Virus record (IMG/VR): IMGVR_UViG_3300032307_000764
Span: 1 to 64,000 of that record
DNA from: a virus
Lineage: Duplodnaviria > Caudoviricetes
Strand: one strand, 5' to 3'
DNA length: 64,000 nucleotides
Part shown: positions 10,841 through 33,024 of the stretch, in pieces
Position numbering within the stretch: position 1 is the first letter of the stretch
How the letters are laid out: the number at the start of each line of letters is the position of its first letter
Notes under the pieces: generated by a model
Database searches by the model: none
What the model saw: the letters and a program-made list of their open reading frames with translations, nothing else
Told to the model about the DNA's origin: nothing
Translations under genes and position numbers: made by a program

Positions 10841-11386
10841 ATGACTATATCAAGCAAAAATAAAATATTAATCAACAGAGTCCTAGATACGATCGATTGG
10901 TCTTTGATGCTTAAGTTTTATAAGCTAGTGGGTAGAACGATAGGGACGGAAAATGTACAAATTCCAGGGATTAAGAAGCTAGACAAGAAGGTAAAACTAA
11001 ACGAGGATCACATTAGAAATGAGGTTAATTACGTTATAAATCATGCAGTGGAAAACGATCTTGCACAGTATGTTTATGGACCTTGGAATGTTATCTGGGT
11101 AAACGGAGAATGGGAAATGGAAATCCCAGAAACAGACGAAAATGGTAAAGAAATACCAGACGGGGAGAGCACATTTGTACCAATTATAGAATCGATGCTA
11201 GAAGTTTACTTTTCCCCTATGGTTGTAGTTTCTAGAGAAGAGGTTTTAGACGACGAAGAGAAAGAATCAGAAAAGCCAGAAACTACAGATCTTCAGAAGC
11301 AATTAGAAAAAGCTATAAGCGACGAAAACTACGAGTTGGCATCTAAGATTAGGGATCTAATCGAAGTTTATAAAAAACAAAAATGA
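10841..11386 (+). CDS. Hypothetical protein with a C-terminal UVR (UvrB/C-type) coiled-coil motif
   Basis: C-terminus LQKQLEKAISDENYELASKIRDLIE matches the UVR motif. Confidence 0.6.
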   Translation: MTISSKNKILINRVLDTIDWSLMLKFYKLVGRTIGTENVQIPGIKKLDKKVKLNEDHIRNEVNYVINHAVENDLAQYVYGPWNVIWVNGEWEMEIPETDENGKEIPDGESTFVPIIESMLEVYFSPMVVVSREEVLDDEEKESEKPETTDLQKQLEKAISDENYELASKIRDLIEVYKKQK

Positions 11387-12252
11387 CAAAAATTAAAACA
11401 TTAAACGAGTATTTTTCTCAGACATTATCTGGAGATAGCTTTAATAGCTCCAATGGAGTTTTTAAGGTTAACTATAAAGCTTATAGCGATTTATCTATTG
11501 CTGTCGGAAGAGATGCAGATCCTAGTCTATTAGTTAAGGATTCAGCTTTCCAAGTAGGGGATATTGTTAAAGGAAAAGTTCACGGTCTGGATAAGAAGGT
11601 TAAAGGAGAGATTATAGAGACTTCAAAGGCGATAGATGGAAAATCATATGTGATTAAAATACAGGGAATTAAAAACAAAAAAACATATACCTTAATACCA
11701 GGATCAATCGAATTTATACAGGATAGAGGACATTCAACTAATTCTATGGGTATGTCTATTAGTTCAAGAGAAAAAAATGCACAGAATTTAAAATATGATG
11801 CAGGAAATATAGTTTGGGGATCTTTAGAAAACAGAAATATCGATCCTCTATATGCTAACATAGATGATAATCCAGTTACAGGTCCCATGGGAACAGGATG
11901 GCTAGTACAATTTGTAGATGATCAGCCGGACGGGGACCAAATATTTAATTCTTTGTTTGTTGATTCTTCTAAAAATATTTTAACATGTCCAAGAGAAAAC
12001 GTAGATTCTAACTTTATGGATATACTAAAAGCTGCAGAAGCTTTTTGCTTTATGTTTTATAATCCAGAGCTAAAAGATCTTCCTACGGATCTAAGATCTA
12101 TAATAGCAATCATCTTCTTAGAGATGAAAAACGAGATGGAAGCTAAAAAACATCTTATTAAGAATTTCACGGATCTTAACCAAAGATCGTACGGTGAATC
12201 AAGAGATGAGCATCTAGACAAAGCGAAATCAATTATTAATAGCTTTTTATAA
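11383..12252 (+). CDS. Hypothetical protein, candidate internal head protein
   Basis: N-terminus MTKIKTLNEYF (capsid-targeting-like); KOW/SH3-like segment FQVGDIVKG. Confidence 0.55.
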   Translation: MTKIKTLNEYFSQTLSGDSFNSSNGVFKVNYKAYSDLSIAVGRDADPSLLVKDSAFQVGDIVKGKVHGLDKKVKGEIIETSKAIDGKSYVIKIQGIKNKKTYTLIPGSIEFIQDRGHSTNSMGMSISSREKNAQNLKYDAGNIVWGSLENRNIDPLYANIDDNPVTGPMGTGWLVQFVDDQPDGDQIFNSLFVDSSKNILTCPRENVDSNFMDILKAAEAFCFMFYNPELKDLPTDLRSIIAIIFLEMKNEMEAKKHLIKNFTDLNQRSYGESRDEHLDKAKSIINSFL

Positions 12253-12253
12253 G
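12225..12253 (+). promoter_or_regulatory. Class A motif variant GAAA-N19-TATAAG
   Basis: Upstream of 12259. Confidence 0.4.
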
Positions 12254-12258
12254 ATATC

Positions 12259-13056
12259 ATGTCAATAGAAAGAAAAAGAAATCTTTTAAGAATTTCTAGA
12301 GAAAAGATCAAGAATCCAAATTTCTCTGGAAATTTTAATTTTAATCCACCTATACAGGATCAAAGTAAAGTTATGGAGGTAAATACAACAGCAAGTTCTA
12401 GCACTGTTAATAGAATTAAAACAACAGTAAAAAGTACATATCTAGGAAAAAACCTAAACCCAGATTACGTAGGAAAATATAAAGGAGAATCTTTTATAGT
12501 TGCAGGGTGTGGATCATCCTTAAATTACTATACAGATTTCAGTAAAAATTATGTGATCGGCGTAAATGACATCGAAAGAATATTGACACCCGATTTTTTA
12601 ATAGTAGTAAATGACTGCAGGACATTTATGAGAGGAAGATGGGATTATGTAAGAGATTCACTAAGCCCTGTTATATTTTCACATATGGATAATCCGGGAC
12701 CAATAACAAGAGCATCACATCTAGTAAAATTACAAGTTGGTGAAAGAAATAATCCAAGGCTAGATCAATTTGATTTCGTAGATCACACTATGAATTCTCC
12801 ATATATGGCAGCTATAGTTGCATATCAATTAGGAGCTAGAAAAATAGCTATGGTTGGTGTTGACTTTACTCAGGATCATTTTTTCTCCAATACAGGTACA
12901 CACAAGCTTTCTAAACATATCAGAAATATTGATCACGAATTCTTAATGCTAAGAAACGAGTTAGAAAAAAGAGGTATTAAAGTAGCTAATATATCCCCCA
13001 TTAGTTTATTAGAGTCATGGCCTAAAATGACACTGGAGGAATTCGAAGCCCTTTAG
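12259..13056 (+). CDS. DUF115 / Maf-like (MptE-like) putative glycosyltransferase
   Basis: SFIVAGCGSSL...IGVND...PDFLIV...NSPYMA...AYQLGARKIAMVGVDF. Confidence 0.65.
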   Translation: MSIERKRNLLRISREKIKNPNFSGNFNFNPPIQDQSKVMEVNTTASSSTVNRIKTTVKSTYLGKNLNPDYVGKYKGESFIVAGCGSSLNYYTDFSKNYVIGVNDIERILTPDFLIVVNDCRTFMRGRWDYVRDSLSPVIFSHMDNPGPITRASHLVKLQVGERNNPRLDQFDFVDHTMNSPYMAAIVAYQLGARKIAMVGVDFTQDHFFSNTGTHKLSKHIRNIDHEFLMLRNELEKRGIKVANISPISLLESWPKMTLEEFEAL

Positions 13057-13067
13057 AAACTTTATTA

Positions 13068-14876: not shown

Positions 14877-14884
14877 GATATATA
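14877..14884 (+). promoter_or_regulatory. Class B motif GATATATA embedded in an inverted repeat
   Basis: 20 nt before the TTG at 14905. Confidence 0.6.
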
Positions 14885-14904: not shown

Positions 14905-15660
14905 TTGAAGAATATTTTAAATTTTAACGCTTGGCTTTTCGAAAATGAGGAGAGAGATGACTTTTATAAAAAAGAGTTAAATCCTTCATTCTGGAAAGAC
15001 GATAAATTTGATCCTCAGATCAGAGAGAAGCTTCTTAAAATCGCTAAAGATTTTTACGAAGCTCTAAAACTAACAGCACCAATAAAAGATATACAGCTAA
15101 CAGGATCGTTAGCTAATTACAACTGGACTGATAAATCGGATCTAGATGTACACGTTCTTATCGATTTTAAAGATGTTGACGATAACATAGACCTAGTTAA
15201 AAAAGCTTTAGATGGTGCAAGATTTATATGGAATCTTAGACATAATATAAAGCTAAGAGGATTTGACGTAGAGCTATACGTTCAAGACATACACGAACCA
15301 CATACAGCATCAGGTTTATTCTCGTTATTAAATAACGAATGGATTAGAGTTCCTAAATACAGTCCACCCGACATAGATTATAAAGATGTAGATAAAAAAT
15401 ATCAAGGGATTATTTCCGATATTCTACAAATGGAGAATCTAATGACTACTTCCGATTTTTCATCCTTCTCAGAAGAAGAATTATACAATCATGCACAGAA
15501 ATTAAAAAAGAAAATTATGGACATGAGAAAAGAAGGATTAGCAAGAGAAGGAGAATTCTCTGTTGAAAACCTGGTGTTTAAAAAATTAAGGAACGAAGGA
15601 TATATAGAAAAGATAATAGAGTTGATCTCTAAAGCATACACAAATATCTACAATGAGTAA
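14905..15660 (+). CDS. Pol-beta superfamily nucleotidyltransferase (TTG start)
   Basis: LTGSLANYNW...SDLDVHVLID (GS...DxD), ELYVQD. Confidence 0.8.
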   Translation: MKNILNFNAWLFENEERDDFYKKELNPSFWKDDKFDPQIREKLLKIAKDFYEALKLTAPIKDIQLTGSLANYNWTDKSDLDVHVLIDFKDVDDNIDLVKKALDGARFIWNLRHNIKLRGFDVELYVQDIHEPHTASGLFSLLNNEWIRVPKYSPPDIDYKDVDKKYQGIISDILQMENLMTTSDFSSFSEEELYNHAQKLKKKIMDMRKEGLAREGEFSVENLVFKKLRNEGYIEKIIELISKAYTNIYNE

Positions 15661-18244
15661 TAATATGAAAGACATGTACAAAGGATATAATCCTATTTAC
15701 GAAAGTTTATTTAACTCGGTTAACGAAGACAAGGAAAAAGGAGCAGACAAAAAAATAAAAGCCCTTGATACAATTTCTGCAGTTTCTACTGCGTTAAATA
15801 CCTTCTTCTCAATCTTAATGAATTCTAAGATGGAGAATGCTAAAACTCCTAGAGGGTTTCAGGAGATAAAAAACAAATTGTTAGGTACTAACAATTTTGG
15901 AGCTTTCAGACAATACTTAATTTCTGTAGTTCAATCTTTAGCAGCTATGGATTTAACACAGAAAGAAGCATATCAAAGAAATATTCAATTTTTAATGGAT
16001 ATTCTTGGAGGTGACGTTGAAATGCTTTTAGGTGACACTAAATTATTCGATAGCCTTAAAAAAGACACCATATCTAAGCTACTTAAAAATTTCGAAAACG
16101 ATCTTAACGATAGAGAGGACCAATTAAGAAAAACTAATCCTAAACTTTTTGGTGACGTTGTTAAACAAGGTCTTGTGGTTAAGGAAGCAAAAAGAACTGG
16201 GGACGAGAGTGATCCAGAAGAAGCAGAGTTTAGAGGTCAGGCATTTAATAAATCTAAAGAGTCTTTAGATGCTGCTAATGCTTTTGTTGGTATGATCGAC
16301 AGAGATAAGTATGTTGCAGTATTAAAAGATAATGCTGACGTAAAAAGATACAAAGAGATCGCTGATGGACTTTATAGAAAAGCTCAGGATCTACAAATGC
16401 TTGATAGATCAGGTGCTTTAGGAGGTAAAGTTGTTACATCTACTGGAGAATTCAAACTAAAAGAATACAAAAGAAAGCAGGATGACCTTATTAACGAGAT
16501 CATTCGTCAAAAAAGTGAATACCAAAGAGTAAAAGACGGAGTTCTTAAACAAGGAGGATTAACACCTCCACCGCCGATTCCTGTTGTTTGTCCTCCAGGA
16601 AAAAAATTCGATACAGCTAAAGGTATATGTGTTGATGCAGGGGGTGGAAGTAACACAGGAGGCGGAACAGGAACAATACCTAAACCAACACCAACACCAG
16701 TATCAGAGTGTAAATTCCCAATTAAATTAGGAACTAAATGTAAGGACGTAGCAACATTACAAAATAAAATGATGTCATTACTTCCTTCAGTTAAAGAATA
16801 CCTTCCTACTGTTGGTGGTGCTGATAAAAAATACGGCAAAGGTACAGCTAAGGTTACAAATATTATTTGGTCTTATCTTACAGGTAATACTTTAGATATT
16901 AAAGGAGATCTTACTAAAGATATGTATGATAGAATCATGGCTTTAACTAGTAATGATATCGATCTTAATTGCTATAATCCAACTACATCTCAAGCTAAAG
17001 AATCTTTAGATTGGGAAATGTCAATCGAAGATAAAATAGAGGAAAGAGAGCAAATCAAAAATGCTCCAGTTCTTTCTTTCGAAGATTTCTATTCAGTTAT
17101 TGAAGAATCTTACAGCTTTGCTAAATTAGACGAACAGGTTTTTGATAGATTGAAAAAGGTACCAATAACTACTATGCCTGTACCAAACCCTGTTAGTACA
17201 GCAGCATTAATAGACTGTTGTGTTAAAGATTCAATTTCACAAGAAGCACTTGCAAATTGTGCGGGATCAGGAGCAACTGGAGGAACAGGTGGTACTGGAG
17301 GAACAGGTGGTACTGGAGGAACAGGAGATCAAGAAGTTAAATGGAAGGGATTAAAACCAGTTAATGACGGAGCTTACACATTATACTTCGACGAAAGTTG
17401 GGCAGATTGGTGGGGAGACGTTGGTAAAGGAGCTTTAATAGCAGGATTGATAACTGGAGCAGCTATAATAACAGGTGGAGCAGTTCTAGCAGTTGCAGCT
17501 CCTTCAGTTTTAGCAGGAACAACAGTAGGTGCAGGAACACTCGCAGCTATGACGACAACAGGTATAGGAAGCACATTGGCAGGTGCTGGTGCTATAGGAA
17601 CAGCAGGTGCTTTAGCTTCTGGAGCTGGTGCTATAACTTTAGCAGCTGGAGCAATAGGAGGTTCAGCAGTTGCTAAATGGGCAGGAGATGATAGAAAACC
17701 AGTTACTGTATTAGTATTTAACGGATATATTGAAAGTATAGCAGTTAAGGCTATGGCAAGGGGATTATACAATAGCTTAGGCGGAACAGTTTCTTCACAA
17801 GATTTATTGGCAATCTATTCTACATTAATATTATGTAGAGGTACATACACTGACGGCGGAGACGGTAAAGCAGCTTCAGTTTGGCAAAAAGTTAAATCTG
17901 ATTATGCAGCATTCGGAGGTGGAGATTTAGGCTCAGATATTAGAGGTATTACTTCTGGAGGTGCAGGAGGATTCTTTAAAGATATCGTAACAGATATGGA
18001 CGAACTTCCTGGATTCCCTATGAGCTTTAAAACTAAAGACCCTACAAATTCAGCAGGTCCTACTACATTCGAAAGTGCAAAAGATGCTTGTGACGAAGCA
18101 ATAGCTAAATTAGATGGTAACTCTACTAAGATGTCTGAGAATCTTAAAAACATCACAGAGGAGGATTTAGAAATGCTTTCTGAAGGTATGGGTGAAATAA
18201 CTGAAAGTGTTGAGAAACAAGTATCAGGGGAATCTGAGGAATAA
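15653..18244 (+). CDS. Large virion-associated protein: helical N-terminus, Cys/Pro linker, peptidoglycan-binding-like segment, long Gly/Ala hydrophobic stretch
   Basis: IKLGTKCKDVATLQ...DKKYGKGT (PGBD-like); about 90-aa GALIAGLITGAAIITGGAVL...AGAIGGSAV stretch; lies immediately upstream of the head genes. Confidence 0.5.
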   Translation: MSNNMKDMYKGYNPIYESLFNSVNEDKEKGADKKIKALDTISAVSTALNTFFSILMNSKMENAKTPRGFQEIKNKLLGTNNFGAFRQYLISVVQSLAAMDLTQKEAYQRNIQFLMDILGGDVEMLLGDTKLFDSLKKDTISKLLKNFENDLNDREDQLRKTNPKLFGDVVKQGLVVKEAKRTGDESDPEEAEFRGQAFNKSKESLDAANAFVGMIDRDKYVAVLKDNADVKRYKEIADGLYRKAQDLQMLDRSGALGGKVVTSTGEFKLKEYKRKQDDLINEIIRQKSEYQRVKDGVLKQGGLTPPPPIPVVCPPGKKFDTAKGICVDAGGGSNTGGGTGTIPKPTPTPVSECKFPIKLGTKCKDVATLQNKMMSLLPSVKEYLPTVGGADKKYGKGTAKVTNIIWSYLTGNTLDIKGDLTKDMYDRIMALTSNDIDLNCYNPTTSQAKESLDWEMSIEDKIEEREQIKNAPVLSFEDFYSVIEESYSFAKLDEQVFDRLKKVPITTMPVPNPVSTAALIDCCVKDSISQEALANCAGSGATGGTGGTGGTGGTGGTGDQEVKWKGLKPVNDGAYTLYFDESWADWWGDVGKGALIAGLITGAAIITGGAVLAVAAPSVLAGTTVGAGTLAAMTTTGIGSTLAGAGAIGTAGALASGAGAITLAAGAIGGSAVAKWAGDDRKPVTVLVFNGYIESIAVKAMARGLYNSLGGTVSSQDLLAIYSTLILCRGTYTDGGDGKAASVWQKVKSDYAAFGGGDLGSDIRGITSGGAGGFFKDIVTDMDELPGFPMSFKTKDPTNSAGPTTFESAKDACDEAIAKLDGNSTKMSENLKNITEEDLEMLSEGMGEITESVEKQVSGESEE

Positions 18245-18246
18245 CG

Positions 18247-18254
18247 GATATATA
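18247..18254 (+). promoter_or_regulatory. Class B motif GATATATA
   Basis: Before the prohead protease ATG at 18267. Confidence 0.6.
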
Positions 18255-18266
18255 AAAAAATAAAAA

Positions 18267-20300
18267 ATGGAAAAAAACCTAGATTACGTTTTAATATTAG
18301 AGAAATCCTCTAAGAATCTTACAACTTCTAAAGAAGGAGGAGATTACTTTCTAGAAGGTGTAGCCGCTGTATTTGGCGTAGAGAACTCTAATCATAGAAT
18401 CTATGAGGAGAACGAATATCTTCCACATCTTGACTATTTGAGAAAAAAGATAGAGCAAAATAGATTAGTTGGTGAATTAGATCACCCTAAAGAATTTGAT
18501 GTATCTTTAAAAAATATCTCTCACGTTATCACAGATTTAGATTACGATAAAGGAAGCAGAGCAGTTAAGATCAAGGTTAAACTTCTTGATACTCCAGCAG
18601 GTAAAATTGCTAAGAGCTTAATCGATGCAGGTATTCCTATTTCTATCTCTTCAAGAGCAGCTGGTAACGTAAAAGAAAATAAAAAAGTTGAAATCAAAAA
18701 GATTTTCACTTATGATTTAGTTGCAGATCCAGGATTTGAAAATGCTCAATTAGAAAGAGTATACGAGAGTTTAGGATCTCATAGCTTATCAGAATCAGTA
18801 AAAGAATCTGTTATTTCTTCATTAATGAACATAAATGAGAGCTTTGGACTTAGAAAAAATTCCAACACTCAGATATATAGAATAAAAGATACGGAGAAGA
18901 TCTCTAAACTTTTAAAAGAAAACACAAATAATTCAAAGAACATGGACAATAACTTTGTCACTGCAGAAGAGCTAAACGAATATTCATTAATCCTTAAGAA
19001 GGAAATGGAGTCACTTAAAAACGAAATTAAATCAGCTAACAAAGGTAATTCTTCAGTTAGCGAATCTAATGATTCAGTTTTAGAAGAAAGAGTACAAAGA
19101 CTTGAAAAATACTCTGAGTATCTTGCTGAAAATTTAGAGTCTTCTATTAAGTACGGAGATTATTTAGCTGAAAACTTAGAAGGATCTATTTCTTACAATA
19201 AGTATTTAGCTGAAAACTTAGACAAAGCTATTTCTTATGCTAAATATTTAGCTGAGCATGTTGATGGTAATATTTCTTATTCTGAGTACATCGCAGAAAA
19301 CTTAGATAACAATATTGCTTACAGCAAATACATCGCAGAAAATCTAGATAAAAATATCTCTTACTCTGAGTATTTAGCTGAGAACTTAGACAAGAACATT
19401 TCTTACTCTGAGTATTTAGCAGAAAACCTAGACAGAAATATTTCTTACTCTGAATACTTAGCAGAAAATTTAGACAGAAACATTTCTTATTCTGACTATT
19501 TAGCTGAGAACTTAGACAAAAACATTTCTTACTCAGACTATTTAGCTGAGAACTTAGACAAAAATATTTCCTACTCTGATTATTTAGGAGAAAAATTAAA
19601 CGGAAATATTAACTACTCAGATTATATCGCTGAGAAAGTTAAAAACAACATAGAGTATGCTGAGTATTTAGCAGAATCTCTAAACGGTGGAGCTTCTAAA
19701 CCTAATCTTACTGCTAAAGTTAATGAATCAATTAACGAAGGCAAAAGAACATCAGGTTTCTCAGGAGACTACAACGGTCTTTCTTCGAAAGTTGACAAAT
19801 TAATCGAATCTGTTAACACACAAAAGACTGACGAAATTATTAATGAAAATAAATATTCTTTCTTAAAACTTGTCGATGACAACACTAAGAAAGGATTCTT
19901 ATCTTTGAACGAGGCCGAAAAACAAAAGGTCGTAAAAGCTCTTAACGAGCACAACTATAATTCGGGTACGGATGTAGTTAACATTATGGGATCTGCTTTA
20001 ACTGAACAAGTTAACTCAGGAACTAAATTCCTTGACATGATGCCAGAAGATTTGGCACCAGCATGGGAAGGTTTAAACGAATCACAGAAAGCATCTATTA
20101 TTGCTCAAAGTAAATTCTACAAACTTGACACTGCTTATCAAATCAATCACTTCTGGAAAACGAGAGGACTTTCAGCTCCACAAGCTAACTTAGAACAGCT
20201 AAACGAATCTCAAGAAGCTAACAAACCTGTAGTTAATGCAGTTAGCAATAGCTATATGCAAAACATCGCAGCAGAGTTAGAAAAAAGATTTAAAAAATAA
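18267..20300 (+). CDS. gp21: T4 gp21-like prohead protease fused to a gp22-like scaffold
   Basis: LEGV...NSNHRIY...GELDHP (His)...LLDTPAG...ISSRAAG (Ser)...TYDLVADPGF; repetitive coiled-coil C-terminal half; directly upstream of the capsid gene. Confidence 0.9.
   Translation: MEKNLDYVLILEKSSKNLTTSKEGGDYFLEGVAAVFGVENSNHRIYEENEYLPHLDYLRKKIEQNRLVGELDHPKEFDVSLKNISHVITDLDYDKGSRAVKIKVKLLDTPAGKIAKSLIDAGIPISISSRAAGNVKENKKVEIKKIFTYDLVADPGFENAQLERVYESLGSHSLSESVKESVISSLMNINESFGLRKNSNTQIYRIKDTEKISKLLKENTNNSKNMDNNFVTAEELNEYSLILKKEMESLKNEIKSANKGNSSVSESNDSVLEERVQRLEKYSEYLAENLESSIKYGDYLAENLEGSISYNKYLAENLDKAISYAKYLAEHVDGNISYSEYIAENLDNNIAYSKYIAENLDKNISYSEYLAENLDKNISYSEYLAENLDRNISYSEYLAENLDRNISYSDYLAENLDKNISYSDYLAENLDKNISYSDYLGEKLNGNINYSDYIAEKVKNNIEYAEYLAESLNGGASKPNLTAKVNESINEGKRTSGFSGDYNGLSSKVDKLIESVNTQKTDEIINENKYSFLKLVDDNTKKGFLSLNEAEKQKVVKALNEHNYNSGTDVVNIMGSALTEQVNSGTKFLDMMPEDLAPAWEGLNESQKASIIAQSKFYKLDTAYQINHFWKTRGLSAPQANLEQLNESQEANKPVVNAVSNSYMQNIAAELEKRFKK
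18872..18888 (+). promoter_or_regulatory. Class B extended motif GATATATAGAATAAAAG inside the protease gene
   Basis: Identical 17-mer to the intergenic copies at 22112 and 32003; in-frame ATG at 18942. Confidence 0.55.
19110..19688 (+). repeat. 14 tandem copies of a 42-bp (14-aa) unit, YSEYLAENLDKNIS
   Basis: Copy 1 at 19110 and copy 14 at 19656, an exact 42-bp period; in frame within the protease-scaffold gene. Confidence 0.95.
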
Positions 20301-22135: not shown

Positions 22136-23116
22136 ATGTTATTTGAAAATCTAAACCAATACCAAAAAGCTAAACAAACTCTATTAGAAAACGAAAGAGA
22201 TATAGATTTAACTGTTAATATACTAAAGCAATCCCCATTGTTTTCTAATTTATCAGAAGGTGAAATCATATCTGGAGTATCTCAACTTAATGAAGGACTC
22301 GGAGATACGATTGCTAATTTCATAGGTGGAGCATTTGGAGGTGATATCTCCAAGATCAAGACTGTACTTACTCAGATGAAAGAGCAAGAGCTTAAATTCA
22401 ACAGGGAGGAATACGAGATCTATAACGAATTCTACAGAACTCTAGAGGATCAAAAAGCTCTAGAAAAAGACAAAAATAATCCTAGCTATCAGGCTTTAAA
22501 TAAAGATATCATGCAATACAGAAATGGATTGAACATGAGAATGAAAGAGCTTACTAAATCTCATAATGAGATATTTAATGCTCTAGAAAGTAAAATCAAA
22601 GATCTAGTAGGAGACAACAAAAGAAAGAAGAAATATTTCAATGCTCAGAGAGCTACTGATGTACTAGAAACTAGAAATGATAGATACGAAAAGATTAAGT
22701 CAGTAACTGCAAGAAGTGCTTCAAGGTCTAGCGATTTAGAAAGCTTCTTTGGTGTTACAGTAGACGATGCTAAAAAAGATGCTGACGATGCAAAAACAAA
22801 AGCAAATAAAGCTGTAGAAAACTTAGAAAAAACACAACAGGTTAATCCTAGTGCAGCTCCAATTTCAAAGGAAAAATATTCAAAAGATCCGCAAAAGTCA
22901 TTTTTTGAAAGATTTGATAAAATAAGAAGTAGCGTAGGAGGATTTTATTCTAAGAGAAACGATCTTACTAAATTAAGAGATGATATCTACAACGAAATGA
23001 TATCAGATGGTGGTAAAAAACACGATAGAAATACTCTCCTAGAACTTAATACCATATTTTCACAGGTAGAAAATCTTTATACTACACTGGAGAAAGAGGA
23101 AATGAAAGCAAAATAA
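22136..23116 (+). CDS. Coiled-coil hypothetical protein, candidate internal head/ejection protein
   Basis: Follows a GATATATAGAATAAAAG motif; contains LNE-GLGDTIANFIGGAFGG; N-terminal similarity to 23117 and 31992. Confidence 0.55.
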   Translation: MLFENLNQYQKAKQTLLENERDIDLTVNILKQSPLFSNLSEGEIISGVSQLNEGLGDTIANFIGGAFGGDISKIKTVLTQMKEQELKFNREEYEIYNEFYRTLEDQKALEKDKNNPSYQALNKDIMQYRNGLNMRMKELTKSHNEIFNALESKIKDLVGDNKRKKKYFNAQRATDVLETRNDRYEKIKSVTARSASRSSDLESFFGVTVDDAKKDADDAKTKANKAVENLEKTQQVNPSAAPISKEKYSKDPQKSFFERFDKIRSSVGGFYSKRNDLTKLRDDIYNEMISDGGKKHDRNTLLELNTIFSQVENLYTTLEKEEMKAK

Positions 23117-23992
23117 ATGAAAAGAATTAAACGTTTAGAAGAATTTGAAAGCCTTAACGAGGGTATTCTTTCATCTATATTTGGTGGAATAGGTAGCTTG
23201 TTTACTAGTAGAAAAACAAAAGTTGAATCTTTATTAAAGAATATACGTAAAGCTAGAGAAGAAGATATTAATAACACTATTAATCTAGAGAAAGAGATAT
23301 GGAATTTACCAAAGGATAATACTCCAGAGTATAAATTTACAGTAAGCAACCTAAATAGACAACAAAGAACCTACAGTTCTCTTAAAGGACAGGAGATTAA
23401 TTCGTTAATGAAGGAAGCTGATAGACTAATAGAGGGAGATCCTAAACTACAAGCTATGTTTAGTTCAGGTCTTGCACAAATAGAAGCAGAGAGCACAGAA
23501 AAGCTAATTAAAAACATTAGACCCTACAAGGATCAGACATATTTGGATAAACTAAATAAAGAATTCGACACTTTAGTGAAGGATGCAAATAAAAAGACAA
23601 CTTATTACGAAGGTATTAAAGATAACGATGGATATGCTCCTAGACCACAAATTCCTAATAATGTTAGCAACGACACTTTAACATTCATAGATATGAGTGC
23701 ACAAGAAGCTACTCTTTTTTCTAAAAATCTTTCAGATAAAGAGCTTTCTAGATATCACCAGGAGATAAGGGAGTTCTATTACGAACTAGAATTCAAATAT
23801 GATGAATCTATAAAGAACCTCAAAAAAGATATCAGAAAAGCATACAAAGAGGGACAAGATTGGCTAGTTAATTCCTTAGAGAAAGAAGAAGTTAATATCA
23901 GATACAAGATGAAAAAACCTATAGACAGACTTAAACAAAGAATAGTAACTATAGAGAAAGAAATTAAATCTAGAAGATATGCGAATTACTAA
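23117..23992 (+). CDS. Coiled-coil hypothetical protein, probable paralog of 22136
   Basis: MKRIKRLEEFESLNE-GILSSIFGGIGSLF. Confidence 0.55.
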   Translation: MKRIKRLEEFESLNEGILSSIFGGIGSLFTSRKTKVESLLKNIRKAREEDINNTINLEKEIWNLPKDNTPEYKFTVSNLNRQQRTYSSLKGQEINSLMKEADRLIEGDPKLQAMFSSGLAQIEAESTEKLIKNIRPYKDQTYLDKLNKEFDTLVKDANKKTTYYEGIKDNDGYAPRPQIPNNVSNDTLTFIDMSAQEATLFSKNLSDKELSRYHQEIREFYYELEFKYDESIKNLKKDIRKAYKEGQDWLVNSLEKEEVNIRYKMKKPIDRLKQRIVTIEKEIKSRRYANY

Positions 23993-24263
23993 GATAAAAG
24001 ATTTTGTTTTAGAACAAGAATCTACACAGCAAAAAGTTAAGGATCTACAGGCTAAGACTACTATAGAAAAAGAACTGATGGAGATAGACAAGCGTATATC
24101 AGATTCAGATCTTGCTATAGCTAATCTAGGTAAAAGAGAAAAGGATGGATCTTTAAGTAAAAGCGAATCGTGGGGACAACAAGCAATTGAACTACAAAAG
24201 AAAGTTGCTGAATACCAGAAAAAATCTGCAGCTTATAAAAAGATGGAATCCCTTACCAAATAA
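23979..24263 (+). CDS. Small coiled-coil protein with a capsid-targeting-like N-terminus
   Basis: MRITKIKDFVLEQE. Confidence 0.55.
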   Translation: MRITKIKDFVLEQESTQQKVKDLQAKTTIEKELMEIDKRISDSDLAIANLGKREKDGSLSKSESWGQQAIELQKKVAEYQKKSAAYKKMESLTK

Positions 24264-24289: not shown

Positions 24290-24820
24290 ATGAATAATCC
24301 ATATTTAGGTTACAATCCGGTCTTCGAGCAACTTGCAGAAACAGCCAGAAATAACAGTAACAAATTACAAGAGGCTGCTGGAGATATAGATGCAAAAGAA
24401 ACACAAGAATATCTAGGTCTAATCATAGATACGCTCTCCAATAACGTTCTTAAGTTTATAGGATCTGTACCGTATCAGGATTTAAAAACACAGATATATC
24501 CAGGAGCTTTAGAGAAATATTTAAAACTTTCTAACAACGCATCAATAAGAGATTTGTTTACAAATCTTTATGCTATATGGAAAGATTCAATAGAAAAAAT
24601 TAAAGGATCTAAATATAAAGGATCTGCAGATTTCATTAAAATATACGCCGATGCTAACGCAGGAATTGATAAGATCATGCAATCATGGGCAGCATTACAA
24701 ACTAAAGCAGGAAACATTTTACAAGATCCGGCTTTAGTAGAATTTGCTAATTCTAAAATGCAAACAATAGTTTCTTCGGTTCAATCATCTTTGGATGCTG
24801 CTAAGACAACCTTATCATAA
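24290..24820 (+). CDS. Hypothetical helical protein
   Basis: GATATATA upstream; N-terminal YLGYNPVFEQL is shared with the 15653 protein (YKGYNPIYESL). Confidence 0.6.
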   Translation: MNNPYLGYNPVFEQLAETARNNSNKLQEAAGDIDAKETQEYLGLIIDTLSNNVLKFIGSVPYQDLKTQIYPGALEKYLKLSNNASIRDLFTNLYAIWKDSIEKIKGSKYKGSADFIKIYADANAGIDKIMQSWAALQTKAGNILQDPALVEFANSKMQTIVSSVQSSLDAAKTTLS

Positions 24821-27376: not shown

Positions 27377-28792
27377 ATGTGTGGAATATTAGTAGCAAAA
27401 AGGCCAAGTGAGGAAAGAGTTCTTTCTATAGCTCACAGAGGTATTGAACATAGTGTTGTTTATAAAGATGATCTCTGTTTGGTTCATCATAGACTTCCTA
27501 TCCAAACATTAGACGGGGATAATTGGTCCCAGCCTATTCAGATAGGAGAAGATAGATGGCTTTTATTCAACGGCGAAATATTTAACTACGGTGATTTTGA
27601 ATCTGATACAGCTTATCTACAAAATTTATTTTCGAGTTTTGATTTCGGAGGGGTCGGTATGCTACAAGCATTATATGAACCTCATGTAGTTTCTTGGGAT
27701 GGATTTTGGTCAATTGTATTAGTCGATACGAATAAAAGGGAAGTTTATGCCTTTACTGATCCTTTAGGAAAGAAATGTCTATATAAGAATGATAGAGGAG
27801 AGGTATGCTCAGAGATCAAAGGTTTATATGAGAAGGATGAATTTATGAATCTTGATAAATCATTCTTCAGTGGTATAGTTAAGTTTGGTTATTTACCAAC
27901 TAATCAAACCCCTTATGATAATATCAAAAAATTAGATCCAAACAGATTTTATAGATGGAGCTTAGATCATCCTATTAAAATGGAAGTTTCTGATCCTTAT
28001 TACAATTTTAATTCCTTTGATGCAGGACTAAGAACATACGACGACAGGTGTGATTGGTTATGGAATAAAATGGAAAGCTCAGTTCAGGCTAGATTGCTTT
28101 CTAAAAACTATCCCACTTCATTGCTTTTATCTGGCGGACTTGACTCTTCGATTATTGCTGGATTATTACTTAAACTTGGTGCAGATGTAGATTTTTATTC
28201 GATATCAAATGGCGAGGATGAACAATACGTAAAAGACTGCGAGTATTACTGGAACGTCGAATCTAAAAGATTGAAATACGATATAGATTTAGAAAGTGAA
28301 GAAGGAAAAAAAGGATTAATTGATATCTATAAAACATGGAACGAATCTCCCGTTGATATGGGTAGTGTAGTTCCACAGTATCATTTATTTGATGCAATCA
28401 AAAAAGGATCAAATACACGTATAGTTATATCGGGGGATGGAGCGGACGAATTATTTGGAGGATATAGAAGAATCAATGAGTATGATTCACAGCAATCTGA
28501 TATATTCCATGAATTAACTTCTTATCATTTACCTAGATTGGATAAACTTTCTATGGCTCATACGCTAGAGTTAAGAAGTCCTTTCTTAAACCATGACATT
28601 GTTAGATTTGCTTTAAGTCTTCCTTTTGAAGAAAGAAAGAACAAAAAAATTCTTAAAGACACATTTAAGGGGTTAGTGCCGGATTCTGTTATTGAAAGAA
28701 GTAAACTTGCTTTAAAAAATACTAAGATTGTTGATGATCAAATTGCTTATAGAAAAGAGATTGTAAGATTATTCCTCCTTTCCATTAGCTAA
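27377..28792 (+). CDS. asnB: Asparagine synthetase B-like glutamine amidotransferase
   Basis: MCGI (Ntn Cys), HRG, FNGEIFNY, LSGGLDSS (PP-loop), SGDGADELFGGY, ELRSPFL. Confidence 0.88.
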   Translation: MCGILVAKRPSEERVLSIAHRGIEHSVVYKDDLCLVHHRLPIQTLDGDNWSQPIQIGEDRWLLFNGEIFNYGDFESDTAYLQNLFSSFDFGGVGMLQALYEPHVVSWDGFWSIVLVDTNKREVYAFTDPLGKKCLYKNDRGEVCSEIKGLYEKDEFMNLDKSFFSGIVKFGYLPTNQTPYDNIKKLDPNRFYRWSLDHPIKMEVSDPYYNFNSFDAGLRTYDDRCDWLWNKMESSVQARLLSKNYPTSLLLSGGLDSSIIAGLLLKLGADVDFYSISNGEDEQYVKDCEYYWNVESKRLKYDIDLESEEGKKGLIDIYKTWNESPVDMGSVVPQYHLFDAIKKGSNTRIVISGDGADELFGGYRRINEYDSQQSDIFHELTSYHLPRLDKLSMAHTLELRSPFLNHDIVRFALSLPFEERKNKKILKDTFKGLVPDSVIERSKLALKNTKIVDDQIAYRKEIVRLFLLSIS

Positions 28793-30250
28793 AACGAATT
28801 CAACACCTGCGATAGGATCTCCTTTTGCTTCCTTAGGTGAATATCCCTCAGGTCTATCAGTAATAACGAAATCTTCAGAAGGATCTACAATTAATCCTGC
28901 AGAGCTTAAGAAATCTCTATTTAAAAGAAGTGGCGTGCTTTTTTCTGTTCTATCTACTAGGGAGAATTTAACTTTTCTGTAAACAATGCCATTAAAGTCG
29001 ACATCTAAGTTAACTACCGCTCTGTGGTGTATCTTCTCTCCTACTTCTGCTTTAGATTGTCCAACGATTTTGTTTACGAATTCTTTATCTCCTAATTTCC
29101 AATGAACACTTCCGTCGATTTCTTCGATAGAATCAGCATGAAGTGAACATGAAGATGCACCATTACCAGTATCTAATTTGCCCACGAAAGTACCTACTCC
29201 TGGAATAGTTACCATTTCCCTAAATCCTGTAGTTTTCTTAGGCTTAACCCAGTTTTTCTTATCCAATAAGAAATCTAATACTATATCAGTAACCGGTATA
29301 TCCGTTGTTTTCTCGATTCCTGTAGTTCCTGGAGAAGCATTAACTTCAAGAACATAAGGCTTAGCATCTTTTTTATCTACAATAATATCAACTCCGCACC
29401 ATAGGCATCCTGTTGCTTTTGCAGATTCAATTGCTATCTTTTCTATTTCCTTAGGAAGTTCTACTGTTTCAGTGTCACCACCAAGAGAGAAGTTAGTTCT
29501 AAAATCGCCCTCTATCTTAATTCTTTTCATCGCTGCGATGACTTTGTACTCTCTTCCGGACATACCATCAGATTCAGCAATAACGTGTATTCTAAGGTCA
29601 TATTCAGCGTCAACCTTTTCCTGTAAAACTATCTCTGTCTCTGGAGAAAGGTGCCACATAGCTTGTAATGTAGATACTAAGGATGGTCTAGAGTCTATCA
29701 TAAATACTCCAATACCTTTTGTTCCTGAAAGGAACTTACAAACTACTGGATATTCTCCTCCAACTTCTTCAACAGCTTTATCTATATCAGCTTCCGAGGA
29801 AATCAAAGATGTTTTAGGTACTGGTATATTAGCTAGCTGTAATTTTCTTGTTGTTTGTAACTTATCTTCACAAATAATTACTGAGTCGTATGAGTTAACA
29901 CAAGGAAACCCTAAATCCTCCATTTTCTTAAAGAATCCCTTAGCAGCATTATTCTTAATTGAAGATCTTCTAGTTAAAACTATTGTTCTATCTAAGTATA
30001 TTTCTTGTTGTTTACTACCTCTACTAGAGATTAAAAAAGTTCCTTTATTTGTTTTTTGAATAGATCCCTTCTCAGTGTCTATTATTATACATTTAACACC
30101 TCTTTCTTCACAGATTTTCATAATCTTATCTGTGGTTGGCGCATTTTTTAAATTCTTTCCGAGTTTAGTAGTCAACACAACTACTGTCAAGGGTCTATCT
30201 TTACCTTTAACGCCCTTGAATACAAACTTCTCTAATAAGGGAATATCCAT
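28769..30250 (-). CDS. rimK: RimK-like ATP-grasp ligase fused to a retropepsin-like (RimB / putative ATP-dependent Zn protease family) aspartyl protease
   Basis: DKLQT...IPVPKT...YPVVCKFLSGTKGIGV...LQE...DLRIHV...FRTNFSLGG...GVDII...VLEVNASPG; C-terminal KLDTGNG...LVDR...LLLNRDFL. Confidence 0.85.
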   Translation of the reverse strand: MDIPLLEKFVFKGVKGKDRPLTVVVLTTKLGKNLKNAPTTDKIMKICEERGVKCIIIDTEKGSIQKTNKGTFLISSRGSKQQEIYLDRTIVLTRRSSIKNNAAKGFFKKMEDLGFPCVNSYDSVIICEDKLQTTRKLQLANIPVPKTSLISSEADIDKAVEEVGGEYPVVCKFLSGTKGIGVFMIDSRPSLVSTLQAMWHLSPETEIVLQEKVDAEYDLRIHVIAESDGMSGREYKVIAAMKRIKIEGDFRTNFSLGGDTETVELPKEIEKIAIESAKATGCLWCGVDIIVDKKDAKPYVLEVNASPGTTGIEKTTDIPVTDIVLDFLLDKKNWVKPKKTTGFREMVTIPGVGTFVGKLDTGNGASSCSLHADSIEEIDGSVHWKLGDKEFVNKIVGQSKAEVGEKIHHRAVVNLDVDFNGIVYRKVKFSLVDRTEKSTPLLLNRDFLSSAGLIVDPSEDFVITDRPEGYSPKEAKGDPIAGVEFVLANGKEE

Positions 30251-30255
30251 ACTTG

Positions 30256-30263
30256 TATATATC
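30256..30263 (-). promoter_or_regulatory. Class B motif GATATATA
   Basis: Just downstream of the terminator and 5 nt before the rimK-fusion ATG. Confidence 0.6.
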
Positions 30264-30269
30264 TTTGAA

Positions 30270-30300
30270 CAAAGAAAAAGCCTAGATTTGATCTAGGCTA
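30270..30300 (-). terminator. Intrinsic terminator for the minus-strand acidic-protein gene
   Basis: Perfect 9-bp stem AGCCTAGAT/ATCTAGGCT with a 3-nt loop (30279-30299), followed on the minus strand by TTTTCTTT. Confidence 0.8.
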
Positions 30301-30326
30301 GTCTAATATGTTAAGATTCTTTTATA

Positions 30327-30998
30327 TTATCCGAAGAAATTATCAAATCTAATTACTCTTTCTGAGGTTTCTTCAGCTTCGTCTTCTAAATCTGATTCGT
30401 CCTCCTCTTCTGTGTCATCTTCTGATTCTTCCTCATCATCCTCTTCGTCATCCTCTTCATCATCTTCTTCAGTCTCCTCGTAATTTACCTCTTCCTCATC
30501 TTCTTCATCTTCATCTTCTTCTTCATCAGATTCCTCTTCATCTTCTTCAGTTTCCTCTACATCTTCGTCTGAATCATCTTCACTCTCGTCTTCGTATGAC
30601 TCGTCTTCGTCTTCTTCAGTTTCGTCTTCAGTATCTTCCTCCTCGGTATCTTCTTCTTCAGATTCTTCGTCAGATTCTTCTTCTGTATCCTCTTCCTCAG
30701 TATCTTCGTCAGATTCCTCCTCATCGTCAGATTCGTCCTCTTCTTCAGATTCTTCTTCGGTATCTTCGTCAGATTCTTCCTCTTCGTCAGATTCTTCTTC
30801 CGTATCCTCTTCAGTTTCTTCTACATCAGATTCCTCGGTTTCTTCTTCGTCAGATTCTTCCTCCTCGTCAGATTCTTCCTCATCAGTTTCCTCTTCCTCT
30901 TCTTCCTCTACCTCTTGGTCGTTCCAAAAGTCGTTTTCTGGTAATTTTTCGTTTTTTCTAGAGCTAAACTCCGCGAAAGATAATATCGATTTGTTCAT
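30327..30998 (-). CDS. Extremely Asp/Glu-rich protein (functionally reminiscent of T4 gp67 acidic prohead core protein)
   Basis: Central about 180 aa are almost only E/D/S/T; N-terminus SILSFAEF, C-terminus VIRFDNFF. Confidence 0.7.
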   Translation of the reverse strand: MNKSILSFAEFSSRKNEKLPENDFWNDQEVEEEEEEETDEEESDEEEESDEEETEESDVEETEEDTEEESDEEEESDEDTEEESEEEDESDDEEESDEDTEEEDTEEESDEESEEEDTEEEDTEDETEEDEDESYEDESEDDSDEDVEETEEDEEESDEEEDEDEEDEEEVNYEETEEDDEEDDEEDDEEESEDDTEEEDESDLEDEAEETSERVIRFDNFFG

Positions 30999-31011: not shown

Positions 31012-31263
31012 TTATTCTGTTATACCTATTGAAGCGGCACTTCCGCTTTCAGTTGCTCCATATCCAGGATAGTCTATCTTAGAGAATCCGTTATAAACTG
31101 CATCTTTATATCCAACATAGTCATAAGCTGGCTCTGGAGTAATTTTATGAAGTCCCGTTCTATCTTCCTTACTAAGATTTTCTGGGTTCCAAGGATCATT
31201 AACTACTTTCATAAAATCCTTGTAGTTTAATATCTCTCTTTTCTTTACGTTTTTCTGATTCAT
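31012..31263 (-). CDS. Hypothetical protein (83 aa)
   Basis: EILNYKDF motif near the N-terminus; co-oriented between 31992 and 30998. Confidence 0.6.
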   Translation of the reverse strand: MNQKNVKKREILNYKDFMKVVNDPWNPENLSKEDRTGLHKITPEPAYDYVGYKDAVYNGFSKIDYPGYGATESGSAASIGITE

Positions 31264-31275
31264 AGTTATTCTTCT

Positions 31276-31992
31276 TTAGAATGATGGCAGAATGCTGGAT
31301 AATCCAGATTTCATTGCTTTTGCAAATATATTAGGATCTTTATTTTCGGCATTTTGTATATCAGCTGCTAATTTTTGTTTATCAGCTGTAGTAACATTAG
31401 ATCCTGAAAGAACATCACCTAAATTAAATCCACATATTTTATCACCGATCATATTCTCGACGTTATCCATAAATTTAGTGTTATTAATTGCATTGGTTAG
31501 TGCCTCACGTAATCCAGCTGCGATTGTTCCCCCCATACCTGACTGCATATCCATTTTAAGACCTAATTTAGGTAATAAATATTCTATGCCTCTTTCTTGT
31601 AATGTCTCGGAAAGACCCTCTACTATTGCTCTTGCCCAATTTTTACAAGAGCCTTTACCAAAATAACTACCAAGCTCTGTAAAATGTACTTGTTCAATAA
31701 CGTTTCTTACAACCTGATAAAAGAATGTAGGTTGTCCTGTTTCGTCAAAAGGCTCAATGCCTAATTTCTGAGCTGCCCAGTCAACTACATAATCCTTAAA
31801 GGTATCTGTAAAACCTCCACCTAAAGATCCAAAGAAAGATGAGAATATATTTTCATTAATTTCACTTTCACTTAATCCCTCAGATTTCATTCTAAGATAT
31901 TCATTTTCCAAAAGAGCCATCTCATTGGATTTACCAACTGTTGAAGTCTTATTAGATTCTGAAATGAATTGGGAATATTTACGTATTACCAT
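31276..31992 (-). CDS. Hypothetical protein, candidate internal head/ejection protein
   Basis: MVIRKYSQFISE; INE-NIFSSFFGSLGGGF; GATATATAGAATAAAAG upstream. Confidence 0.6.
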   Translation of the reverse strand: MVIRKYSQFISESNKTSTVGKSNEMALLENEYLRMKSEGLSESEINENIFSSFFGSLGGGFTDTFKDYVVDWAAQKLGIEPFDETGQPTFFYQVVRNVIEQVHFTELGSYFGKGSCKNWARAIVEGLSETLQERGIEYLLPKLGLKMDMQSGMGGTIAAGLREALTNAINNTKFMDNVENMIGDKICGFNLGDVLSGSNVTTADKQKLAADIQNAENKDPNIFAKAMKSGLSSILPSF

Positions 31993-32002
31993 TTTCTGTC
32001 TA

Positions 32003-32019
32003 CTTTTATTCTATATATC
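32003..32019 (-). promoter_or_regulatory. Class B extended motif GATATATAGAATAAAAG
   Basis: Before the minus-strand ATG at 31992. Confidence 0.65.
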
Positions 32020-32053
32020 ATTTTATCTCAACGAATCTGATATATATTAAGAA

Positions 32054-32467
32054 ATGAAAAGAATATTAAAAATAGACAATTTCACTAAGGATTTTCCTTC
32101 AGTATACGGATTAGATGCTGACGGGACTTGTTACGAGGTAAAAGAACCGTTTTATTTGGAGGTTATAACGGGTTACGAATCCAAAGGAACTATGTCTGGT
32201 ATTCCATATTTTGAGCCAACGTGGACCAAAATTAAATGTGAAAAGGGAGATTTAATAACAGCTTCTAAAAGTGGATGTTATTTACAGGTTAAAGGATCTG
32301 AGGGATTCATGGAATGTAGACCAGTATCCGAATCCCCAGAAGGTACTCCTAAATTAGATAATATTCCTTCCAATTTCATAAACAAAATTGGAAAGGACGT
32401 AATGAATATACATCCTCTAAGTTTCGAAGAAAGAAATAAAATAACATCATCTAGATTATTACTATGA
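32054..32467 (+). CDS. Hypothetical protein
   Basis: ORF track; N-terminus MKRILKIDNF. Confidence 0.6.
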   Translation: MKRILKIDNFTKDFPSVYGLDADGTCYEVKEPFYLEVITGYESKGTMSGIPYFEPTWTKIKCEKGDLITASKSGCYLQVKGSEGFMECRPVSESPEGTPKLDNIPSNFINKIGKDVMNIHPLSFEERNKITSSRLLL

Positions 32468-33024
32468 GAAGGATATACACATTTAACGAATTTGACATCA
32501 ACGAAAGTTCTGCTGCAGGAAATAACGGACAGTTTTATACAATACCTTTTAAGTATACATCAAACGATCCTAAAAAAGGATACAACAGTAAAACCTTTGT
32601 CGATGATCTAAAATCAATATTTTTAGAGAAGCCAAATCTAGAAAAAGAAATAACCGAATTTCTAGTTGCAAATGCAGAGATCTCTAGAATAGACGATCTT
32701 AATATTAAACCTTTTTCTCTAGTATCTAAATTGATTCCTGAAATAGAAAGAATAATAGATGCTGGTGAATATGAACCAGAAATGATAATGCCTGGTGGAG
32801 GTCTTCTATTTATTAGAAATAAAATATTCAAAGACGGAACAGGTGCAGATTTCTACATAAACAAAAAAGGAACTAAGGTAGAAGTTGTATTCGATGATGA
32901 TATGGGAAAAGATAAATCAGCTTTATTTATGGTCGACAATTTTCCTTATGATAGATTCGAATTTACAGAGGAGGAAAAAGAAGAGTTGGAAGCCCTTGTT
33001 AAAGCTAGAGGAACTAATTCTTAA
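32464..33024 (+). CDS. Hypothetical protein, candidate internal head protein
   Basis: MRRIYTFNEFDINE. Confidence 0.6.
   Translation: MRRIYTFNEFDINESSAAGNNGQFYTIPFKYTSNDPKKGYNSKTFVDDLKSIFLEKPNLEKEITEFLVANAEISRIDDLNIKPFSLVSKLIPEIERIIDAGEYEPEMIMPGGGLLFIRNKIFKDGTGADFYINKKGTKVEVVFDDDMGKDKSALFMVDNFPYDRFEFTEEEKEELEALVKARGTNS

Follow-up and report, generated by a model that had tools for sequence, protein, structure and literature searches.

A short N-terminal peptide on unrelated proteins of an uncultured jumbo phage resembles the capsid-targeting sequence of T4

The uncultured phage record IMGVR_UViG_3300032307_000764 (Caudoviricetes) comprises 248,191 bp at 34% GC, with a completeness estimated by CheckV at about 85%. 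Its first 64 kb, hereafter the window, were the subject of a preliminary description that listed nine otherwise dissimilar proteins with similar N-termini, likening these to the capsid-targeting sequence (CTS) that takes the internal proteins (IPs) of T4 into the phage head. Here we analyse this shared N-terminal peptide, which we call the tag, in the window, across the whole genome and in related phage loci. The tag proves to be a conserved feature of a large, dispersed set of genes, and its residue pattern, its predicted cleavage site and its likeness to the neighbouring head scaffold together suggest how it may work.

The window holds a head module on its plus strand. The major capsid protein (MCP) gene (20315–22039) encodes a member of the T4 gp23 family (PF07068, 7.1e-39, 134.7 bits) that is 39–43% identical to the MCPs of Lak megaphages and 33% identical to that of Tenacibaculum phage PTm1. 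Directly upstream, a 677-residue protein (18267–20300) combines a prohead protease of the S77, T4 gp21 type (residues ~17–262) with a scaffold; the protease portion matches PF03420 (9.3e-10, 38.7 bits against a cut-off of 27) and phrog_207 (2.3e-37), and also Peptidase_S80 (3e-8). The scaffold contains 14 tandem 14-residue repeats (residues 279–474, nt 19101–19688) with the consensus Y-S-E-Y-L-A-E-N-L-D-K-N-I-S (YSEYLAENLDKNIS), and such repeats are kept in relatives, which have 11–19 Ar-h-x-E units each (Ar, aromatic; h, hydrophobic) in the 16 loci listed. With a gp23-family MCP and a gp21-type protease-scaffold present, the tagged genes of the window thus lie in and around a T4-type head module.

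The tag is described by a 13-column position matrix, built from the N-termini of this genome and refined on all 248 kb, with the consensus [H/R/N]-I-K-[L/S]-F-[E/N]-[Q/E]-F-h-N-E-x-x; with the start included, the tag reads M-[KR]-h-I-K-x-F-x-x-F-h-N-E over 13 residues. A matrix restricted to the core proved too strict for use. At a score of 10 or more, the matrix places the tag at the N-terminus of 42 of the 344 open reading frames (ORFs), beginning 0–5 residues past the initiator methionine, where 0.17 would be expected from the rate at internal positions of the same proteome (4 matches in 63,070). The two aromatic columns (4 and 7; F/Y/W) carry 3.7 and 4.0 bits, and 32 of the 42 members still score at least 8 under leave-one-out. 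The carriers, 75 to 686 residues long and about 12% of ORFs, are dispersed over the genome in several clusters. Their bodies are dissimilar, as had been claimed for the first nine: an all-against-all blastp of the 42 proteins with the tag removed returned a single related pair (147571 and 217712). The preliminary description had named, as an outcome that would count against it, a motif equally common among the metabolic proteins of the glycan island; no ORF there (33,884–49,468) scores 7 or more, so the motif is not as common in that island. The same absence extends over the whole interval from 33,024 to 101,198, which also takes in large ORFs at 51–64 kb that we take, by position only, to be baseplate or tail genes.

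The preliminary description had proposed extending the scan to the full proteome and to related phages, and in these relatives the tag follows the gene. An MCP-based search of IMG/VR yielded 215 related stretches, and the best 80 loci were analysed with the matrix, which was not trained on orthologs, at a cut-off of 8. In these loci 126 of 1,068 ORFs are tagged, against 0.9 expected, and among orthologs of untagged genes 0 of several hundred score. Since orthologs of tagged genes carry the tag and those of untagged neighbours never do, the tag belongs to particular genes and is kept by purifying selection throughout a large clade of uncultured phages. Ortholog tags vary in their residues and keep the physicochemical pattern. 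Synonymous codons at tag positions follow the usage of the genome (Phe TTT/TTC 60/40 versus 65/35; Glu GAA/GAG 67/33 versus 66/34), and the two conserved Phe columns use both codons (TTT:TTC 14:13 and 25:11). The tag is therefore unconstrained at synonymous sites, which argues for selection on the peptide and not on an RNA or DNA element. In sum, the tag is N-terminal, selected as a peptide, present on unrelated bodies and kept in orthologs.

Two near-complete relatives (245 kb and 270 kb) show how the carriers evolve. Homologs were found there for 22% of tagged genes against 23–30% of other genes, so faster loss of tagged genes can be discarded: they are kept as often as others. They are, however, more diverged, with a median identity of 31–37% against 43–49%. 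The matrix of the present genome finds at least 7 and at least 22 tags in these two relatives, both figures being lower bounds. In the 245-kb relative, for which crude calling gave 279 ORFs of at least 50 residues, about 23% of the proteins of this phage have blastp homologs; the MCPs are 71–77% identical despite the few shared proteins.

All nine strings in the preliminary description lie at gene starts (for minus-strand genes, its coordinate was the high end), and all nine fit the pattern it gave, which is a loose one, matched by 30 ORFs within their first 25 residues against about 8 expected by chance. Seven of the nine belong to the matrix-defined set. Two of these are in the head operon: 23117–23992 (plus strand; 291 residues, isoelectric point (pI) 9.0) and 23979–24263 (plus; 94 residues, pI 9.3) carry tags at nt 23117–23161 and 23979–24020 that end S-L-N-E|G and V-L-E|Q, the bar marking the predicted cut. 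Their scores are 22.2 and 16.6 (19.9 and 10.3 under leave-one-out), and 16 of 22 and 13 of 17 orthologs, respectively, are tagged. On the minus strand, 31276–31992, the first gene of a three-gene unit, encodes 238 residues behind a tag (nt 31951–31992) that ends I-S-E|S, with a score of 17.7 (leave-one-out 12.2) and 5 of 9 N-terminally aligned orthologs tagged. The 186-residue product of 32464–33024 (plus; tag nt 32464–32508, end I-N-E|S) scores 18.4 (leave-one-out 12.6) and has no match in PHROGs, Pfam, NCBIfam or the protein atlas. The gene at 30327–30998 (minus; tag nt 30951–30998, score 16.4, leave-one-out 11.2) encodes a poly-acidic chain of 223 residues with a pI of 4.1, about 190 of them E/D/S/T, like the acidic tail of T4 gp67, and no ortholog was found in the flanks of the 80 related loci. 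Directly downstream of it, within minus-strand 28769–30998, follows a RimK-type ATP-grasp protein (PF08443, 2e-37), whose C-terminus also shows a weak Zn_protease-like domain.

The two remaining window members, both weak under leave-one-out, are retained because their orthologs carry the tag. The 289-residue product of 11383–12252 (plus; tag nt 11383–11427) scores 11.7 (leave-one-out 2.8), and nearly all of its 46 orthologs start I-K-x-[IL]-N-E-[FY]-F, with 12 of the 46 reaching 8. In its AlphaFold2 (AF2) model the tag is followed by a disordered stretch of about 40 residues and then by an SH3/Tudor-like barrel joined to a helical domain, residues 1–53 being predicted disordered ahead of the folded body; a fold search gave no match at E ≤ 0.001 and only weak ones to SH3/Tudor-like barrels. 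The gene at 14905–15660 (plus; TTG start, tag nt 14905–14949) encodes a 251-residue nucleotidyltransferase (NTase) of the pol-beta type, described below, with a score of 18.0 (leave-one-out 5.1) and 31 of 46 orthologs tagged. The other two proteins of the original nine are doubtful, each scoring below 7. In the 83-residue product of 31012–31263 (minus) the motif lies further in, beginning at residue 11, and lacks the final h-x-E, and 0 of 38 orthologs reach 8, all 38 keeping an MNxxNVxKRE leader; the 137-residue product of 32054–32467 (plus) has Ile at the first aromatic position and a single ortholog, with a weak motif.

Tags tend to end in what looks like a protease site. A link to a following (L/I/V)xE had been remarked on in the preliminary description, and it is strong: of the 42 tags, 28 have an [LIVM]-x-E that starts no more than 8 residues past the second aromatic (in 25 after 0–2 residues, in 15 immediately), compared with a rate of 18% for Ar-x-x-Ar sites at internal positions (p = 7e-12). 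Within the first 22 residues the site is present in 39 of 42 tagged proteins and in 36% of untagged ones (p = 7e-13). Most tags end h-N-E, a tripeptide enriched 12.8-fold in tag windows, and the protein of the proteome richest in h-N-E is the protease-scaffold, with 9 copies. The MCP carries S-L-N-E|S-A-G-A-Y at residues 40–48 (SLNE at nt 20432–20443), invariant in 38 distinct ortholog N-termini, at the position of the T4 gp23 site L-T-E|A-E-I-G-G.

The tag also resembles the scaffold. The core of the scaffold repeat, Y-x-x-Y-L-A-E, corresponds to the tag core Ar-x-x-Ar-h-x-E, and a profile made from the repeats gives tagged N-termini higher scores than it gives to untagged N-termini or to internal segments (Mann–Whitney p ~1e-6). 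The 14 scaffold units thus share the core of the tag, which suggests that a tag could act as a single scaffold unit.

These features recall the CTS of T4, the subject, reportedly, of work by Mullaney and Black in 1996. In T4 IPIII the first 10 residues are enough for packaging; targeting depends on Tyr and Phe at positions 4 and 7 and processing on positions 8 and 10, an Asp as residue 10 preventing cleavage but not targeting (PMC9026906). The CTSs of IPI, IPII and IPIII, and the propeptide of Alt, are removed by the prohead protease gp21 (PMC9026906, PMC3012670). Columns 4, 7, 8 and 10 of the tag matrix are F/Y, F/Y, I/V/L and E, spaced as these four T4 residues. In a blind test, the core columns of the matrix ranked IPIII 4th and IPII 8th among 272 T4 ORFs, and T4 IPI starts M-K-T-F-K-E-F. 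T4 also presents the tag–scaffold likeness in miniature, with Q-E-F-I-A-E in the CTS and K-E-W-L-A-E-N in the scaffold gp22. The best-scoring T4 N-terminus in the blind test, above IPIII and IPII, was M-K-T-F-K-E-F-I-K-E of gp61.1 (NC_000866 18966–19130; a hypothetical protein of 54 residues), which looks like an unrecognised CTS.

The two systems thus share a short N-terminal peptide, of about 10 residues in T4, on otherwise unrelated proteins. In both, two aromatics three apart are directly followed by h-x-E, the protease is of the gp21 family (S77) and the capsid protein of the gp23 family, the genes are late (putatively so in the present phage), and the cargo bodies, an enzyme among them (Alt in T4), are diverse and evolve fast. 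They differ in several respects. The tag here runs to 13 residues and has a further conserved Ile-Lys turn ahead of its first aromatic; its preferred site is h-N-E, whereas that of T4 is I-A-E; it has about 42 dispersed carriers where T4 has a handful; the carriers as a set are mildly acidic and the T4 IPs basic; and the protease is fused to a scaffold of 14 tag-like repeats.

The giant phages of the phiKZ type offer a second comparison. They have long, non-uniform propeptides and paralogous families, and are not known to have a single short common tag. The heads of phiKZ, 201phi2-1 and SPN3US package and eject some 50 protein species amounting to tens of MDa, and a related prohead protease cuts many of their inner-body or ejection proteins behind a Glu residue (PMC5694885, PMC7411985, PMC10052503). 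The Peptidase_S80 match of the protease noted above is a further likeness to these phages. The present phage differs from phiKZ and SPN3US in its uniform 13-residue tag and gp23-family MCP, and has neither the long heterogeneous propeptides nor the capsid protein of the phiKZ type. Our literature searches, one of them crowded by HIV 'capsid-targeting' papers, found no report of large CTS families outside the T-even phages.

The tagged enzyme allows the tag to be followed across lineages. The preliminary description had supposed that the cargo included an enzyme, and the product of 14905 indeed has an intact G-S...D-x-D motif of the pol-beta type (G67-S68 and D79-L-D81, following the pattern hG[GS] and, about 10 residues later, D-x-[DE]), invariant in 26 orthologs, and a putative NTase-like fold. 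It matches phrog_36119 (4e-40), and Pfam NTP_transf_2 and MTPAP-like below cut-off (E ~1e-3). The AF2 model (mean pLDDT 77.6) is confident in the body, with residues 1–24 below 50 and predicted disordered, and its best Foldseek matches in the PDB are all NTases (ANT/AadA, CD-NTases and FAM46), including AAD(9) at 5.6e-4 and CdnE at 6.7e-4, with low TM-scores of 0.2–0.27. We therefore assign the protein, on its sequence motifs, to the pol-beta NTase superfamily.

Other T4-type phages encode the same NTase body with a different N-terminal extension before a conserved body start, E-L-N-P-x-x-W: the homologs of Caulobacter phage Cr30 and cyanophage S-B68 begin M-R-K-F-S-Q-L-L-E and M-K-R-L-L-S-E-L. 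The ortholog of the cultured Maribacter phage Molly begins M-N-L-K-T-L-V-E, which is the tag of that phage: Molly_1 (MT732451) carries [IL]-K-[ST]-[LM]-[VI]-E-S on about 11 small proteins, and we know of no published description of it. When the Molly tag is matched to internal segments of Molly proteins, the protease-scaffold, the core protein next to it and the portal come 3rd, 5th and 8th of 200. Given these internal matches and the different NTase N-termini from lineage to lineage, the tag of each lineage seems to be matched to the head machinery of that lineage. Molly resembles the present phage in counting the NTase ortholog among its carriers and in having a gp21-type protease-scaffold fusion beside a gp23-type MCP, the propeptide of that MCP having h-x-E|S/A sites. 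Its tag differs in lacking the aromatic pair, in having the predicted cut site inside a 7-residue core and in its fewer carriers, and its scaffold is without the 14-residue aromatic repeat. In the present clade the P2 residue is Asn both in the tag and at the MCP site, a co-variation that fails in Molly. Copies of the Molly tag also occur inside the NUDIX protein Molly_24 (residue 151) and inside Molly_33 (residue 58).

No obvious common N-terminal tag was seen in the head region of the cultured Tenacibaculum phage PTm1. Its protease-scaffold (18222–19916) has a repetitive aromatic segment built on another unit, E-x-W-I-K-x-D-F-T-K-E-L-S-E-G-I-E-K-W.

Tagged genes are further linked by a shared upstream octamer, GATATATA, of which the genome has 56 copies, 50 of them at most 120 nt before a gene start on the same strand. 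Among tagged genes 24 of 42 are preceded by it, and among the others 19 of 247, an enrichment of about 7-fold. In the window it occurs on the plus strand at 14877–14884, 10764, 15599, 18247, 22112, 24264 and 32039, and on the minus strand at 30263 and 32019, and every tagged gene there either has the octamer or comes after a gene that has it. It stands 28 nt upstream of 14905, 54 nt of 15653, 24 nt of 22136, 26 nt of 24290, 27 nt of 31276 and 15 nt of 32054. It also precedes the protease-scaffold gene and two large plus-strand ORFs, 77198 and 89499, which, lying among structural genes, are presumably tail genes. By its association with tagged and head genes, the octamer marks the two as co-regulated and is a putative late promoter.

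In our view the common N-terminal peptide is likely to be a propeptide that targets its carriers to the capsid, as the CTS does in T4. Under this reading, tagged proteins would be made late in infection together with the head proteins, and the two aromatics, three apart, would dock the tag onto the scaffold core. The scaffold-fused S77 protease would then cut after the Glu of h-x-E, preferably h-N-E, with cuts falling in the scaffold repeats, in the propeptide of the capsid protein and at the end of each tag. Cleavage would free mature cargo inside the head, to be delivered into the host with the DNA, by analogy with the IPs and Alt of T4. More tentatively, and as a model that we would put at somewhat less than an even chance, the tag may be a one-unit mimic of the repetitive scaffold, so that any protein starting with Ar-x-x-Ar-h-N-E could co-assemble with the 14-unit scaffold and be freed by the fused protease.

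Several observations weigh against this. Ten of the 42 members fall below 8 under leave-one-out, 11383 and 14905 among them. Tagged proteins hold 13.5% of the residues of the proteome, a very large cargo list, and their median pI of 5.4 contrasts with the basic IPs of T4. Three tagged proteins have no [LIVM]xE site. The likeness between repeat and tag is moderate, with 31% of tags and 6% of controls reaching 10, and the upstream Ile of the scaffold repeat is off the tag register by one residue. T4 gp20, Pfam Portal_T4 and T4 gp55 were not found by sequence in this roughly 85% complete record, an absence on which we base no claim; with no gp55-type late sigma factor found, the name 'late promoter' for GATATATA is given by association alone. 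We found no virion, proteome or cleavage datum for this phage or its close relatives, and no proteomics for Molly, the closest cultured phage that bears a tag.

The main rival sees in the tag a peptide by which late proteins dock to, or are regulated by, another common partner: a chaperone, a site at the membrane or replication compartment, or a switch for degradation or activation. A cargo list of this size would fit such a role, the more so as it includes housekeeping-like enzymes such as the P-loop kinase 118393, and so would an acidic set unlike the DNA-binding IPs of T4. This alternative would, however, have to account for a tag that repeats the very residue pattern mapped for T4 capsid targeting, ends in the maturation tripeptide of the MCP, resembles a scaffold repeat and sits on proteins from inside the head operon (23117 and 23979). 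For a membrane or secretion signal in particular, the tag matrix is insufficiently hydrophobic. We regard the rival as unlikely. The P-loop protein itself (118393–118986) is adenylate-kinase-like, with the motif G-P-P-G-C-G-K-G-T-Q, and is one of the three tagged proteins without any [LIVM]xE site.

It is less plausible still that the propeptide is genuine in head-operon members only (23117, 23979, perhaps 30327 and 31276) and that the dispersed matches are a compositional habit of an AT-rich genome. Such genomes do favour K, I, F, N and E, the loose pattern first proposed finds some eight matches by chance, and ten members drop out under leave-one-out. Yet the 42 N-terminal matches stand against an expectation of 0.17 derived from the 63,070 internal positions, not one of several hundred orthologs of untagged genes scores, and neither the roughly 7-fold association with GATATATA nor the empty interval between 33,024 and 101,198 is what a compositional habit would give.

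Descent from one old paralogous family, with a conserved N-terminus and the rest diverged beyond recognition, is very improbable. Two carriers, 147571 and 217712, are detectable paralogs, and 22136, 23117 and 31276 have a common post-tag G-[IL]-[LF]-S-S-[IF]-F-G-G. The carriers nevertheless range over 75–686 residues, and their bodies are of several kinds: a poly-acidic chain, coiled coils, the predicted pol-beta NTase fold of 14905 and, in 11383, a helical domain joined to an SH3-like barrel. The NTase body, moreover, recurs in other phage lineages behind different N-terminal peptides; on the all-against-all blastp of the bodies and the different folds we reject this explanation. A conserved nucleotide element at the 5′ coding end (a translational operator, RNA structure or recombination site) has a precedent in the 5′ RNA structures and translational repressors of T4-type phages, but synonymous choice in the tag mirrors the genome and orthologs change residues while keeping the pattern, and on the unconstrained synonymous sites we reject an RNA-level element, giving this explanation almost no weight. 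Compositional chance, paralogy and an RNA element are thus each largely excluded.

If the tag is a capsid-targeting propeptide, the question becomes what it carries. Searches of PHROGs, Pfam and NCBIfam with the window cargo returned no family other than the NTase of 14905. The products of 23117, 23979 and 30327 probably resemble head-core or internal proteins, and the window cargo is probably a mixed set, in which the NTase is an enzyme that could act in the next host. With head-core-like proteins, an enzyme and family-less bodies side by side, an 'arsenal of effectors' goes beyond the evidence for this stretch. The anti-defence or host-takeover role proposed in the preliminary description is speculation for the seven window members, which match no named family apart from the NTase and several of which resemble head-core components. 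What stands of its interpretation, on indirect evidence, is a modular, T4-CTS-like, probable packaging tag on unrelated proteins, one of them an enzyme; the effector role, the set of nine and the limit to 11–33 kb do not, the tag being genome-wide with about 42 members.

Other genes of the head operon show related features. The 863-residue product of 15653–18244 (plus) contains a tag-like segment, [IV]-L-S-F-E-D-F-Y-S-V-I-E-E (nt 17069–17107, around residue 472), strictly kept in all close orthologs and followed by about 100 residues of Gly/Ala-rich hydrophobic sequence; cleavage at this segment may free a membrane-active C-terminal half. The same protein and the 176-residue, untagged product of 24290–24820 (plus), which has G-Y-N-P-V-F-E-Q, have another N-terminal motif in common, Y-x-G-x-N-P-[IV]-[YF]-E-[SQ]-[LM] (15653–15730 and 24290–24360), kept by all their orthologs. 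Similar strings occur in Molly, where the MCP and the core protein have N-P-L-T-E-S-L and D-P-I-M-E-S-L, and the motif looks like a second propeptide class or cleavage context with Pro at P4. The product of 22136–23116 (plus; 326 residues) is a distant relative of 23117, and its farther relatives start with the tag M-x-L-N-F-K-E-W-E-x-L-N-E. In 22136–23116, 23117–23992 and 31276–31992 the common G-[IL]-[LF]-S-S-[IF]-F-G-G, or a close variant, comes right after the predicted cleavage site.

Within the protease-scaffold gene, 18872–18944 (plus) comprises an internal GATATATA and an in-frame ATG (Met226) about 70 nt downstream. This element may give rise to a nested scaffold product without the protease, as in the protease/scaffold genes of herpesviruses. 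Outside the window, a tagged protein of 454 residues (126370–127734) contains the complete tag once more at residue 202 (score 17.7), which may reflect two fused cargo genes or an internal processing site.

Should the tag turn out to serve some purpose other than packaging, one in eight proteins of the virus would nonetheless bear a strikingly conserved address label, with a partner worth finding. If it works as in T4, the matrix lists the cargo that enters the cell with the DNA, information that normally requires purified virions and mass spectrometry, and supplies dozens of candidates for first-minute effectors to functional screens; the CTS principle would then reach far beyond the T-even phages, with about 40 cargo species per genome. 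At about 40 species and 12% of genes, including enzymes such as the NTase, this would be the largest such set for any T4-type head. The rule that a tag is one scaffold repeat ending in a protease site would, if true, be usable to load foreign proteins into other phage heads. The present clade, Molly-like phages and T4 would each have a tag matched to their own scaffold and protease, and, with more than 200 IMG/VR contigs sharing this MCP, the packaged and probably injected proteome of a whole uncultured jumbo-phage clade would be readable from sequence.

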